From: a virus
Taxonomy: Duplodnaviria; Heunggongvirae; Uroviricota; Caudoviricetes
IMG/VR virus record: IMGVR_UViG_2617270956_000008
Location: 1-48,241 of that record
Strand: one strand, 5' to 3'
DNA: 48,241 nt
Part shown: piece after piece, positions 9,334 through 48,241 of the stretch
How the letters are laid out: each line of letters opens with the position of its first letter
Position numbering within the stretch: position 1 is the stretch's first letter
Translations under genes and position numbers: made by a program
Notes under the pieces: generated by a model
Database searches by the model: none
The model's input: the letters and a program-made list of their open reading frames with translations, nothing else
Told to the model about the DNA's origin: nothing

Positions 9334-10011
9334 ATGATACAGAGTCGAAAAATCAAAGAGTTAAAAATTTTTCTTGGAATAAATGTCTTAAAATCGTACA
9401 CGAAAAATCAATAAATTACATAACATTAAAGAAGAATATTCCAAGCCTTCTTGAGGCCACCACCTGTTTTCAGGTGTCATTCAGATGTGATTTACCCCAG
9501 ATTGGGAAAGCACGCTTTTTTTTCTCAGCTTATTCCGTTTTGCCTGTGTGTTGAATAATTCCACTGCAGTTATATAAAATCAGTAACAGCTGGAAATCAT
9601 TCAATACTCGCACTATCGAAAGTTCGCCAGCCAGCCGTGGCACGTTCTTGCATACGACGTGCTACGGTTTCATTTATCTCCGACCGGAAACCTCTTATAC
9701 AAAGTCGATATGCCAACATCATAGATGATCGCCTACTGGTGGAACTTATATATAAAGCAATAATGACCAAACTTTACAGGCGGAGAAGAGCCGCTTCTTT
9801 AAACTTTCCTCAATAACAGCATTACTTGTATAATGCATCAGTTCACAATAGAAAAATGCATACTGCTATGTTGCCCGGATCATCACGGGCATTTTTTATC
9901 CACCCTACCACGACATATTCATACGCTGCCACACAGAACATTTCAATCCACCAGTATGTTTCCGGTGTTTCACTCTCAGCAACAAACAACAGGAGAACGC
10001 ATAATCGCAGC

Positions 10012-10050
10012 ATAAAATGCATGATGTAAGGAGCTTATATCGCTCCTTAC
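10012..10050 (-). terminator. putative terminator hairpin downstream of tail-fibre gene
   Basis: GTAAGGAGC/GCTCCTTAC 9-bp stem at 10026-10050, followed on the minus strand by ATCATGCATTTTATG. The U-tract is short and displaced. Confidence 0.35.
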
Positions 10051-10061
10051 ATTAATATTAT

Positions 10062-45556: not shown

Positions 45557-45756
45557 ACACATTATTCATACTCATTCTGACTGTATATCTCAATACTGGT
45601 GAGTCGCTTGATGCAATCACCGGCATGTACAACTCAATGAAAGAATGCATGGCTGCCGCAGCGGAACAGAAAATTCCCGGCAACTGTTATCCGGTCGATA
45701 AAGTTATTCACATGGACAATAACGAAATCCCGGCAGGATTAAAAACAGCGCCGTAA
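45553..45756 (+). CDS. ydfD: YdfD-like small lysis-associated membrane protein, 67 aa
   Basis: ATGA overlap with the dicB stop; MNTLFILILTVYLNTGESLDAITGMYNSMKECMAAAAEQKIPGNCYPVDKVIH matches YdfD as recalled. Confidence 0.8.
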   Translation: MNTLFILILTVYLNTGESLDAITGMYNSMKECMAAAAEQKIPGNCYPVDKVIHMDNNEIPAGLKTAP

Positions 45757-45835
45757 TTAATATCCAGTTTCATTTTTATATGCCAGCAATGGCAGGGATT
45801 TGTTCACCCTTAAATCTGTAATGAGGTAAAACAAA

Positions 45836-48241
45836 ATGAGTAAAGTCTTTATTTGCGCCGCCATTCCGGACGAACAGGCAATAAAGGAAGAAGGTGCCGT
45901 CGCTGTAGCCACTGCCATTGAAGCCGGTGATGAACGTCGCGCCCGCGCAAAATTTCACTGGCAATTCCTGGAACATTATCCGGCTGCTCAGGACTGCGCT
46001 TATAAATTTCTTGTTTGCGAGGATAAACCCGGTATACCCCGCCCTGCCCTCGATTCCTGGGATGCTGAATATATGCAGGAAAACCGCTGGGATGAGGAAT
46101 CCGCTTCCTTTATTCCGGTCGAACCAGAATCCGATCCGATGAACGTCAATTTTGACAAGCTGTCCCTTGAAGTACAGAACGCGGTCCTGGTTAAGTTCGG
46201 TACATGTGAAAACATCACCGTTGATATGGCGATTGACGCGCAGGAATTACTGCAGGAAGACGTTGCTACCTTTGACGGGCATATCGTTGAAGCACTGATG
46301 AAAACGCCTGAAATTAACGCTATGTATCCGGAACGCAAACTGTTCGCTATCGGATGGGTTAAACACAAATGTAATCCGGGTGCCAAATGGCCAGAAATTC
46401 AGGCTGAATTACGTAACTGGAAAAAACGGCAGGACGCAGAGCGCAAAGAGACTGGAAAATACACGTCTGTTGTTGATCTCGCCCGCGCCAGAGTCAATCA
46501 ACAGCACACTGAAAACTCAGCAGGAAAAATCAACCCAGTCACTGCCGCCATTTGTCGCGAATACAAGCAGACATGGAAAACGCTGGATGAAGAACTGGCC
46601 TACGCTCTCTGGCCTGGCGATATTGATACCGGAAACATTGACGGCAGCATCCATCGCTGGGCAAAAAATGAAGTTATCGACAAAGATCGCGAAGACTGGA
46701 AGCGCATTTCCGCATCAATGCGCAAACAACCCGATGCCGTTCGCTACGACCGTCAGACTATTTTTGGCCTTGTCCGTGAGCGTCCGATCGACATTCACAA
46801 AGATCCCGTAGCACTGAACAAATACATCACTGAATACCTGACTACCAAGGGCGTGTTTGAAGATGACGAAGGAACAAATCAGGGCGCAGCTGGTACTCTC
46901 CCGTCACCAGTACCAGAAACTGATGCAGTGGAAACGGCAATGCCGGACAACGAAAAAACCGAATGCGAAGTGGAAGACGAACCATCTGTAGAGCGTGAGG
47001 GACCGTTCTACTTCCTTTTCACCGATAAGGACGGCGAAAAATACGGTCGCGCAAACAAACTTTCTGGTCTGGAAAAAGCACTGGCCCTGGGAGCTACGGA
47101 AATCACAAAAGAGGAATACTTCGCACGTAAAAACGGCACGTACTCAGGTTCACAACAAAATACTGGTGCATCTGACACGATCGCACAACCAGAGCCGGTA
47201 AAAGTTACCGCTGACGAAGTAAACAAAATTATGCAGGCAGCCAATATCAGCCAGCCTGACGCCAATAAGTTGCTTGCTGTATCACGTGGTGAATTTGTTG
47301 CAGGGATTAGCGACCCGAATGATCCGAAATGGGTGAAGGGGATTGAAACCCGCGATTCAGTGAATCAGAACCAGCAAGAAACGGAACAGAACGGCCAGAA
47401 AGCGGAACAAAACAGCCCAAATGCGTTACAAAACGAGCCAGAAACGAAACATCCTGAACCAGTGGCGCAACAGGAAGTGGAAAAAGTCTGCACCGCCTGC
47501 GGTCAGACCGGCGGCGGCAACTACCCTGATTGTGGCGCGGTGATGGGCGACGCAACATACCAGGAAACATTCGATGAAGAGTATCAGGTTGAAGTTCAGG
47601 AAGATGATCCGGAGGAAATGGAAGGCGCTGAACATCCACACAAGGAGAACACTGGCGGCAATCAGCATCACGATAGCGATAATGAAACTGGCGAGACGGC
47701 AGATCACTCAATTAAGGTGAACGGTCATCAAGAAATCACATCCACCAGCAGGACGTGTGACCATCTAATGATCGACCTTGAAACCATGGGAAAAAATCCT
47801 GATGCCCCGATCATCTCAATAGGTGCAATATTTTTCGATCCGCAAACCGGAGATATGGGACCGGAATTTAGTAAGACTATCGATCTGGAAACTGCTGGCG
47901 GGGTCATTGATCGGGACACCATTAAATGGTGGCTTAAGCAATCACGCGAAGCGCAATCTGCCATTATGACCGATGAAATCCCGTTAGATGATGCACTGTT
48001 ACAATTGCGGGAATTTATCGACGAAAACTCCGGTGAATTTTTTGTTCAGGTCTGGGGAAATGGAGCCAACTTCGACAACACGATTTTGCGCCGTTCATAC
48101 GAACGGCAGGGGATCCCCTGCCCGTGGCGTTACTACAACGATCGCGATGTACGCACAATCGTTGAGCTGGGGAAAGCCATAGACTTCGATGCCAGAACGG
48201 CTATTCCATTCGAAGGTGAGCGCCATAATGCACTTGATGAC
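45836..48241 (+). CDS. RecE/YdfE-like recombination exonuclease with C-terminal DEDDh (DnaQ-like) 3'-5' exonuclease domain, 3' end beyond window
   Basis: 802 codons open from the ATG at 45836 (GAGG SD) with no stop before the window end. RecE-like middle region (SRGEFVAGISDPNDPKWVKGIETRD, CTACGQTGGGNYPDCGAVMGDATYQETFDEE). C-terminal motifs IDLETMG, WGNGANFDN and HNALDD. Confidence 0.8.
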   Translation, partial: MSKVFICAAIPDEQAIKEEGAVAVATAIEAGDERRARAKFHWQFLEHYPAAQDCAYKFLVCEDKPGIPRPALDSWDAEYMQENRWDEESASFIPVEPESDPMNVNFDKLSLEVQNAVLVKFGTCENITVDMAIDAQELLQEDVATFDGHIVEALMKTPEINAMYPERKLFAIGWVKHKCNPGAKWPEIQAELRNWKKRQDAERKETGKYTSVVDLARARVNQQHTENSAGKINPVTAAICREYKQTWKTLDEELAYALWPGDIDTGNIDGSIHRWAKNEVIDKDREDWKRISASMRKQPDAVRYDRQTIFGLVRERPIDIHKDPVALNKYITEYLTTKGVFEDDEGTNQGAAGTLPSPVPETDAVETAMPDNEKTECEVEDEPSVEREGPFYFLFTDKDGEKYGRANKLSGLEKALALGATEITKEEYFARKNGTYSGSQQNTGASDTIAQPEPVKVTADEVNKIMQAANISQPDANKLLAVSRGEFVAGISDPNDPKWVKGIETRDSVNQNQQETEQNGQKAEQNSPNALQNEPETKHPEPVAQQEVEKVCTACGQTGGGNYPDCGAVMGDATYQETFDEEYQVEVQEDDPEEMEGAEHPHKENTGGNQHHDSDNETGETADHSIKVNGHQEITSTSRTCDHLMIDLETMGKNPDAPIISIGAIFFDPQTGDMGPEFSKTIDLETAGGVIDRDTIKWWLKQSREAQSAIMTDEIPLDDALLQLREFIDENSGEFFVQVWGNGANFDNTILRRSYERQGIPCPWRYYNDRDVRTIVELGKAIDFDARTAIPFEGERHNALDD

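Follow-up and report, generated by a model that had tools for sequence, protein, structure and literature searches.

The phages SfIV, SfV, SfII, and SfI are contractile-tailed Myoviridae that possess HK97-family head proteins, and all four of them have been visualized by electron microscopy (PMC3851460). The SfV record itself bears notes reading "similar to phage Mu." The head/tail mosaic was reportedly described by Allison et al. in the SfV genome paper of 2002. Qin is a 20-kb remnant without replication, head, and tail genes, which carries an essQ/rrrQ lysis set and a Q gene of the ydfT type. Here, we analyzed a 48,241-nucleotide stretch of DNA (IMG/VR record IMGVR_UViG_2617270956_000008, positions 1 to 48,241; hereafter the window), in which a prophage of about 40.3 kb resembles SfV in one half and Qin in the other. 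The window represents Escherichia coli chromosome, and over its full length it is 100% identical to strain THO-006 (NZ_AP022533.1, 2080642-2128881, minus strand). The prophage starts at position 9334, the first base after a fragment of the tRNA gene serU.

According to our analysis, the element is very probably a lambdoid temperate prophage integrated at serU via a tyrosine integrase, which joins an SfV-group late half to an early half of the Qin and enterohemorrhagic E. coli (EHEC) PPompW type and carries three AT-rich cargo genes, designated M1, M2, and M3. The late half, from holin to baseplate, consists of HK97-type head and packaging genes, an HNH gene with the cos site, genes for a contractile tail of the Mu type, and lysis genes arranged as S-R-Rz/Rz1; the early half comprises DicA/DicC immunity, a ydfABC-dicF-dicB operon, hok/sok, and replication genes resembling P and DnaT. 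Late and early halves meet within 32284-35100, where a foreign DUF1133 Q-like gene and M3 are followed by a crossover in the DUF968/ydfU gene, and finer cassette swaps would account for the distal tail fibre, the tape measure with its chaperone and M1, the portal-to-capsid genes, and Rz.

Fifty-six proteins encoded in the window were compared with those of the phages SfV, HK97, Mu, and lambda, of the prophages Qin and Rac, and of 720R4, an in silico prophage record. A first-pass annotation had described the element as a mosaic prophage with an HK97-like head, a Mu-like contractile tail, lambda-like lysis genes, and a Qin-like early region, and the results bore out the mosaic as well as all four labels. 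The head genes follow the TerS-TerL-portal-protease-capsid order of HK97, with no separate scaffold gene and an HNH gene beside the terminase, at identities of only 24-27% (portal 27%, TerL 25%, and major capsid protein 24%), and the protease is named "HK97 family" by the Prokaryotic Genome Annotation Pipeline (PGAP); the siphoviral tail of HK97, in contrast, was not found here. The tail genes keep the Mu order gp38-L-M-...-N-P-45-46-47-48, at only 29-43% identity to Mu gp38, L, N (gp43), P (gp44), and gp45-48 (sheath 36%, gp38-like protein 42%), whereas the transposase and head genes of Mu are absent. In the lysis cassette, the endolysin shares 94% identity with lambda R, and Rz shares 63% with lambda Rz; the holin is annotated as "lambda family," and an Rz1 lipoprotein is embedded in Rz in the +1 frame.

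The same genes are collinear with SfV from holin to baseplate, with most proteins 93-100% identical. The packaging and head set (P27 TerS, TerL, portal, protease, and capsid), together with the adjacent HNH gene, is 68-98% identical to SfV orf1-5 and orf53 (capsid protein 68%, protease 81%), and the order of the tail genes (gp38, sheath, tube, chaperone, tape measure, N, P, and gp45-48) is that of SfV orf10-20. Nucleotide identity to SfV amounts to 97.4% over 12142-17414, 91.0% over 20374-29749 and on across the SfV ends into the HNH gene, and 89.5% over 31433-32283; the SfV genome ends (cos) map to 29749/29750, and the alignment wraps around them. For 720R4, the identity is 97% over 12142-24183. 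Collinearity from holin to baseplate, at 89-97% nucleotide identity to SfV, is shared with the SfV group at large (SfI, SfII, and SfIV; 720R4; and, more distantly, Salmonella ST64B). We considered vB_EcoM-720R4 and 606R7 as isolated phages and rejected this, as the 606R7 "partial genome" contains mtfA, tRNA-Asn, and ybt genes and is a computed prophage region. Since the collinear architecture is shared throughout the SfV group, the combination of HK97 head, Mu tail, and lambda lysis genes is not a new chimera; it is to be read as the ancestral architecture of a known group (SfV, SfI, SfII, SfIV, and related prophages). The earlier proposal that modules from different lineages had been joined thus holds for the late and early halves, but not for a recent joining of head, tail, and lysis genes in this prophage.

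By the same comparison, the prophage appears to be an SfV-like member by its late half only. The SfV group carries serotype-converting gtr genes for O-antigen modification by int/att, whereas none lies between the tail fibre gene and att here. SfV differs further in its integrase and integration site (here serU), in an entirely different early, immunity, and replication region of which only DUF968 is shared, in its Q-like gene, and in its tape measure, Rz (only 26% identical), and distal tail fibre; M1 (also present in 720R4), M2, and M3 are extra here. The tail fibre gene is one uninterrupted open reading frame (ORF) in the window, which PGAP splits into an "stfP partial" pseudogene and a "tail fiber domain" gene. 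Its C-terminal Peptidase_S74 is a self-cleaving chaperone domain, and no separate tail-fibre assembly gene (tfa) lies beside it. In the remainder of the late region, PHROG assigns "tail completion or Neck1 protein" to 22971-23477, and a hairpin follows the capsid gene at 24240-24221.

To define the breakpoints, nucleotide comparisons to SfV, 720R4, and Qin were carried out, and six joints were recognized. The first is located at 12141/12142 in the tail-fibre gene, where identity to SfV and 720R4 stops at 12142 and the GC content passes from 0.557 to 0.457. The second, 17415-20373, contains M1, the tape measure, and the chaperone, and it differs from SfV while being 97% identical to 720R4. The third, 24184-27535, spans portal to capsid and is defined relative to 720R4, whose terminase, connectors, and tail are 96-99% identical to ours, whereas its portal shows only 28% and its capsid protein 24% identity and the protease has no detectable match; this region reads as a clean head-gene cassette swap within the SfV group. 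The fourth, 30159-31432, comprises M2 and an Rz that is lambda-like rather than SfV-like. The fifth, 32284-34434, includes M3 and the DUF1133 Q-like gene, for which no match was found in SfV, 720R4, or Qin. The sixth lies in DUF968/ydfU, with 34435-35100 being 95-96% identical to SfV and 720R4 and 35053-36433 being 86% identical to Qin, as is best explained by a homologous crossover in a gene common to both lineages. On the early side, upstream of this crossover, there is no resemblance to SfV. The whole-prophage comparison thus gave an SfV-like block from holin to baseplate and a Qin-like block beyond DUF968/ydfU, and the alignments place the real hybrid joint at 32284-35100, ending in the crossover. 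The joints had also been said to carry terminators and morons. The head/tail junction has neither, and no overall enrichment of terminator-like (22 found, 18.5 expected by shuffling) or promoter-like elements (24 and 21.1, respectively) was detected.

The early region agreed with Qin in protein identity (hokD 100%, ydfC 100%, ydfA 94%, dicC 84%, ydfU 71%, rem-like gene 71%, dicB 64%, and dicA 63%), in a nucleotide identity of 97% over 43323-44478, and in Rfam matches to DicF (72 bits) and sok. The gene order is also of the Qin type, with divergent dicA/dicC followed by ydfA-ydfB-ydfC, DicF, and dicB-ydfD, and with hokD/sok, rem, and ydfU upstream of Q, but Q itself (DUF1133) is not of the Qin ydfT type. 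The best matches among phage records were the EHEC PPompW prophages, at 95.7% identity in pieces within 35053-48241 that cover 47% of 29700-48241. Qin and PPompW share with the present prophage DicA/DicC, ydfA-ydfB-ydfC, DicF, dicB, ydfD-like, hokD/sok, rem-like, and ydfU genes, at 63-100% protein identity to Qin. Unlike Qin, the present prophage has a full-length genome with replication genes, and a Rha/Ant-like insert with isrK and C4 lies between dicF and dicB. The coordinates of all features are listed in Table 1.

Table 1. Features of the serU prophage and its left boundary in the window.
Feature	Position	Strand	Remarks
tRNA-Ser (serU) 3' end, partial 63-bp copy	9271-9333	-	Left (tail-fibre-end) att repeat; 96.8% identity (2 mismatches) to the intact serU beyond the window
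att-proximal non-coding arm	9334-10061	.	GC 0.387; two ATTCCAAG motifs (9373 minus, 9438 plus); end-of-operon hairpin 10022-10054
Tail fibre, 791 aa, chimeric	10062-12437	-	First ~98 aa SfV-like (baseplate attachment); rest tailspike-like, C-terminal Peptidase_S74 (Pfam, PHROG)
Mu-type baseplate and DNA-circulation genes (gp48, gp47, gp46, gp45, gp44/P, and gp43/N homologues)	12441-17483	-	97-99% to SfV, 29-43% to Mu
M1, 162 aa	17540-18028	-	Sec signal peptide (MKKMFILLLAAGLPLNSFA/K); GC 0.342; phrog_5586
Tape measure and tail assembly chaperone	18093-20402	-	Tape measure 24% to SfV, 99% to 720R4
Tail tube, sheath, gp38-like DUF2635, tail terminator, neck/tail-completion gene	20399-23477	-	93-100% to SfV
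HK97-type head/packaging genes: head closure, connector, major capsid protein, prohead protease, portal, small ORF, TerL, TerS (P27 family)	23452-29682	-	PGAP names
HNH endonuclease beside the terminase genes	29808-30158	-	Pfam HNH, E 2e-16; 97% to SfV orf53
M2, 202 aa, DUF2441	30230-30838	-	ADP-ribosyltransferase-like fold (predicted); GC 0.379; Pfam
Lysis cassette: Rz 30944-31411, endolysin 31408-31884, holin 31888-32223	30944-32223	-	Holin 98% to SfV
M3, 463 aa, stand-alone AAA+ ATPase	32320-33711	-	Orc1/Cdc6-like fold, C-terminal winged helix (predicted); GC 0.398; Pfam AAA_16, AAA_22, weak nSTAND1
DUF1133, Q-like late antiterminator (predicted)	33851-34429	-	Pfam DUF1133, E 5e-89; Phage_antitermQ, E 3e-8; PHROG "anti-termination protein Q-like"
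DUF968/YdfU gene	34444-35436	-	SfV-like/Qin-like crossover point
Early-right region: rem-like, hokD and sok RNA, small nin-region ORFs, DUF977 pseudogene 39242-39664, DUF1627, P-like and DnaT-like replication genes, ydaT-like, Cro/DicC	35438-42702	-	PGAP
Immunity and early-left region: DicA-like repressor, ydfA, ydfB, ydfC, DicF RNA 44269-44320, dicB fragment, Rha/Ant-like, dicB, ydfD-like, RecE-like exonuclease	42779-48241	+	Qin identities, Rfam, annotation

The right end of the prophage was read in the 100%-identical NZ_AP022533.1. There, the window ends 68 nt short of the stop codon of the RecE-like exonuclease gene, which it cuts, and about 1.4 kb of the prophage lies outside it, comprising the remainder of the exonuclease gene together with the DUF4224 gene, int, and an att copy. 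The order past the exonuclease gene is DUF4224 gene, tyrosine integrase, intact serU, and then mtfA, tRNA-Asn, and the yersiniabactin island, with the integrase and serU at window-equivalent positions 48571-49738; ARAGORN found no complete tRNA within the window. Truncation beyond the window, which the first-pass annotation had raised as a sign of a defective prophage, was rejected, as the DUF4224 gene, int, and intact serU are all present and the prophage is complete up to them. Among 5,426 complete E. coli genomes, coverage reached 80% or more in 49 for the late region and in 46 for the early region. Many of the carriers belong to sequence type 131 (ST131), and conservation is near-clonal, at least 99.7% in about 49 genomes. 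Our literature search found no described ST131 serU prophage and nothing specific for the related record names or protein accessions.

This organization suggested how the prophage might be regulated. The DicA-type repressor would keep it silent. After induction, the Q-like protein would allow read-through of the hairpins at 33801-33782, 32296-32277, 24240-24221, and approximately 17524-17499, which could yield a single minus-strand late transcript of about 24 kb that stops at the hairpin past the tail fibre gene. The latter hairpin (10022-10054) folds at -17.4 kcal/mol (z -6.4).

It is possible, though we would not favor it, that the element is a defective (cryptic) prophage like Qin, kept for its cargo or regulators and unable to excise or to form infectious particles. 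PGAP flagged an integrase frameshift, which it called in three independent genomes, an internal stop in DUF977 (confirmed), a ydfB frameshift, and a dicB fragment that indicates a past rearrangement; an excisionase is not annotated, with only the DUF4224 gene in evidence. Vertical inheritance would fit the near-clonal conservation, and the nearest "phage" records are computed prophage regions including host genes, which are no proof of viability. On inspection, the integrase "frameshift" (L005 5262-6312; window-equivalent 48571-49596) proved to be a 13-bp tandem repeat, with GAAAATATTCCAA present twice, that alters only the last nine residues (SNSKCDFCH to RKYSK). The ORF reads through a C-terminal tyrosine (...LIYDRK...), probably the catalytic one, upstream of the altered tail, and prophages of a different type at serU also carry this allele, at 99.3-99.6% identity. 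Three copies of ATTCCAAG are located at the 3' end of the integrase gene and two in the opposite att arm, which suggests that these repeats are arm-type binding sites overlapping the end of int rather than damage; the two motifs in the left arm may likewise be arm-type integrase sites. In addition, none of the virion, packaging, and lysis ORFs is interrupted, each has its full length in comparison with SfV (96-100% coverage), Rz1 and both att copies are present, and the pseudogenes are accessory genes of the nin region and the early-left region. Our preferred reading is a temperate prophage that may be viable.

Morons, as defined for HK97 and HK022, are extra genes between otherwise adjacent genes that deviate in nucleotide composition, possess a promoter and a terminator of their own, and are expressed from the repressed prophage. 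The three AT-rich genes that had been called morons are indeed there and represent the three lowest-GC places in the prophage (500-bp profile), with flanks at GC 0.50-0.57. All of them deviate in composition and stand between genes that adjoin in relatives (SfV orf14 and orf15 are 45 bp apart), with the neighbouring tape measure also replaced in the case of M1. Their signals differ, since M3 has a candidate extended -10 element and a strong terminator, M1 a strong terminator, and M2 a 4-bp hairpin, and no consensus promoter was found for M1 or M2; strong hairpins bracket M1 and M3. The first-pass annotation had placed all three at module junctions. Each of them does abut a similarity breakpoint (M1 is at most ~125 bp away from 17414, M2 at most 72 bp from 30158, and M3 at most 37 bp from 32283), but only M3 lies between differently affiliated large blocks, whereas M1 is inside the tail module at the edge of the swapped tape-measure cassette and M2 between the lysis and packaging genes, both SfV-like. 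Moreover, this criterion is partly circular, since any inserted gene generates breakpoints at its edges. The AT-rich genes would be accessory cargo in standard slots, with M3 between Q and holin, M2 between lysis and terminase genes, and M1 between tape measure and baseplate genes.

M3 appears to have the anatomy of an independently expressed moron. A terminator at 33801-33782 (-19.7 kcal/mol, z -4.8) precedes it, followed by a TGtTATAGT extended -10 candidate, and a second terminator at 32296-32277 (-13.1 kcal/mol, z -2.9) lies downstream, just ahead of the holin gene. The AlphaFold2 model (pLDDT 83) gave 1fnn, 2qen, and 1w5t as top Foldseek matches and is nearest to archaeal Cdc6/Orc1 and PAB2304, with an AAA+ domain, lid, and winged helix; a sequence search of the PDB yielded nothing significant. 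M3 is absent from SfV and 720R4, and in SfV the Q-to-S slot holds a DNA methyltransferase bracketed by annotated terminators. In lambda-type phages, the same slot houses the stx genes of Stx phages, and the slot after Rz, filled by M2 here, holds bor in lambda; the positions are alike, but the cargo (an Orc1/Cdc6-like ATPase and an ADP-ribosyltransferase (ART)-fold DUF2441 protein) is unrelated. The M3 family is widespread, and its members measure about 450 aa. In prophages with different lysis and packaging modules, the slot between Q and holin likewise holds M3 homologues (84% and 76% identical), and remoter relatives were seen next to integrases, flanked by cI and int in an Edwardsiella prophage, and adjacent to a Gabija-like OLD/UvrD pair in Pseudomonas. 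Among the 5,426 E. coli genomes, 56 carry M3, whereas tblastn against 50,697 phage records returned only two actinophages (25-27% identity).

M2 contains a DUF2441 domain, which belongs to the Pfam ART clan (PMC7955679), and is related to the unannotated structure 2aua. By fold and Pfam clan, the model assigns M2 to the ADP-ribosyltransferase fold superfamily, with activity predicted at most; R96, S113, and E188 are invariant in 24 homologues and constitute a candidate R-S-E triad only, from sequence. M2 is absent from SfV and 720R4, and in SfV Rz/Rz1 directly adjoins the HNH gene. Downstream of M2, only a weak 4-bp hairpin with a T-run was found (z -1.67), and upstream no promoter with at least 9 of 12 consensus matches. 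In Citrobacter, a 59%-identical homologue is flanked by another kind of lysis cassette and by a terminase of the lambda type; tblastn against the phage records gave only Cronobacter phiES15 (41%), and 50 E. coli genomes carry the gene.

M1 looks, as far as its context tells, like a tape-measure-type companion inside the tail module. Its terminator at approximately 17524-17499, before the gp43-like gene and with a U-run (-14.5 kcal/mol, z -4.7), was missed by the consensus scan and found by direct reading and folding; a 14-bp hairpin at approximately 18093-18062 follows the tape-measure gene on the other flank (-17.3 kcal/mol, z -4.85), and no upstream promoter reached 9 of 12 consensus matches. 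720R4 has M1 and SfV does not, relatives of M1 are restricted to Enterobacteriaceae, and it gave no Pfam match and nothing significant in a PDB sequence search. A 48%-identical homologue directly follows a similar tape-measure gene in a Shigella contig, and 101 E. coli genomes carry M1, twice the number carrying the present prophage; M1 therefore looks like an old companion of its tape-measure type. It is most likely, judging from its signal peptide and position, a periplasmic protein linked to that type, and by analogy with HK97 gp15 it could be a periplasmic superinfection-exclusion factor matched to the tape measure. The HK97 record annotates morons beside the tape-measure gene (gp15) and elsewhere in the tail region, a position analogous to that of M1, but gp15 has no detectable similarity to M1.

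That the AT-rich genes were acquired as cargo at recombination hotspots gained support from their absence in relatives and from the M2 and M3 homologues in the same slots, but not from any sign that E. coli captured them repeatedly: in this species M2 and M3 occur almost exclusively in the present prophage lineage, all copies share at least 99% identity, and each gene was therefore acquired once by this lineage. Recurrent slot use is supported by other genera, not by E. coli. Together with the old linkage of M1, the location of all three genes on the late-operon strand, and the poor promoter signals of M1 and M2 and hairpin of M2, this near-identity would also be expected if the AT-rich genes were ordinary, long-resident late-operon phage genes whose low GC reflects origin or function, and not independently expressed hotspot morons. 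We regard such an explanation as rather unlikely, as the genes lie 12-20 GC points under their flanks, neither SfV nor 720R4 contains M2 or M3, the neighbouring genes there either adjoining each other or enclosing another gene, M3 has its own terminators and -10 candidate, and the M2 and M3 homologues stand beside unrelated lysis and packaging modules. For cargo genes of this kind, the models and neighbours suggest that M2 and M3 most likely serve host- or phage-directed accessory functions, e.g., exclusion or defence. M3 would be the best candidate for the latter (slot between Q and holin, promoter candidate, and Gabija-like and prophage accessory neighbours), with M2 next. The narrower proposal that a standard lambdoid cargo slot here harbours, in one or more of the AT-rich genes, a so far uncharacterised function by which a single gene provides phage exclusion or defence is unlikely.

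Several observations weigh against the overall interpretation of a regulated prophage with independently expressed cargo. Promoters and terminators stand at shuffle expectation overall in the consensus scans; the extended -10 promoter of M3 and the Q read-through model were read from sequence alone; and M1 and M2 are without a convincing sigma-70 promoter and so are possibly plain late genes. The defence or exclusion reading draws on genomic position, fold, and neighbours. PADLOC gave no match for M1 or M2, and for M3 PADLOC-DB v2 gave only matches of P-loop length (mad8, E 2e-4 over 34 residues), i.e., no real match for any of the three. As for induction, the repressor is DicA-like without an S24 peptidase domain, and no LexA box (exact CTGT-N8-ACAG) was found near the immunity region or the Rha gene. 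The changed last nine residues of the integrase count on the same side.

Finally, the different closest relatives of the late and early halves and a further mobile island abutting the left end could be taken to mean that two adjacent or nested elements, an SfV-like remnant beside a Qin-like one, were misread as one, which is highly improbable given that a single att pair brackets the whole 40.3 kb with no internal tRNA fragment or second integrase, the lambdoid order int-exo-immunity-replication-Q-lysis-head-tail is complete, the joint lies inside an intact DUF968 gene, and the prophage keeps this arrangement whether or not the left island is present.

As a single hybrid prophage, the element can already be found, with automatic annotation, in about 49 complete E. 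coli genomes; it adds one more to the SfV-type/lambdoid hybrids and is common in genomes of extraintestinal pathogenic E. coli. It illustrates textbook modular exchange, with crossovers in shared genes (ydfU and the tail-fibre N-terminus) and swaps of the tape measure and of portal to capsid. Its value lies in the natural context that it provides for three uncharacterised cargo families, i.e., a secreted tape-measure-linked protein, an ART-fold DUF2441 protein, and an Orc1/Cdc6-like ATPase. Since the M2 and M3 families recur in the same slots across genera, they are reasonable candidates for genes through which a prophage might modify its host or make it phage resistant, in a lineage of clinical importance.

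Some minor observations were made at the borders of the prophage. The first ~300 bp of the left arm (9334-9637) are 99.9% identical in a strain whose serU site is occupied by another prophage, of the lambda type (gpJ, Lom; L004 17335-17635); one att arm and its integrase module therefore serve both siphovirus-type and myovirus-type prophages. Within the arm, 107 bp (9575-9681) are 92.6% identical to HK97 20932-21039, adjoining the annotated sib retroregulation site of HK97. To the left, window positions 1-9270 belong to a separate low-GC (0.37) genomic island that abuts the serU fragment and encodes ComEA-like, RepL, two H-NS paralogues, DUF4756, DUF6404, and DUF6387 proteins. In FDAARGOS_1260, this island stretches over about 33 kb as far as an integrase next to zinT, with pilV, a MobQ relaxase, and DotA/TraY among its genes; the version in CFSAN067215 contains tcpC along with other TIR/macro genes. 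The ST131 strain Ecol_AZ146 is without the island, and the same prophage abuts zinT there.

In the early region, hokD/sok (36264-36588) includes a full-length sok (36414-36588, 113 bits) and looks, by its sequence features, like an intact type I toxin-antitoxin pair. The inserted Rha/Ant-like gene (44503-45357) has a dicB 5' fragment (44390-44473) on one side and the intact dicB on the other, in the region 44390-45556. Rfam located isrK at 44554-44630 and a C4 antisense RNA at 44655-44742, both in the annotated 5' part of this ORF, along with a terminator hairpin at 44608-44625; the annotated N-terminus may thus correspond to a non-coding regulatory RNA, as in P1 immI or Gifsy-1 isrK. Across the window, three exact CTGT-N8-ACAG matches were found (0.54 expected), one of them (CTGTTTTTATTAACAG, 41622-41637) in the DnaT-like gene and the others in the tail-fibre and portal genes.

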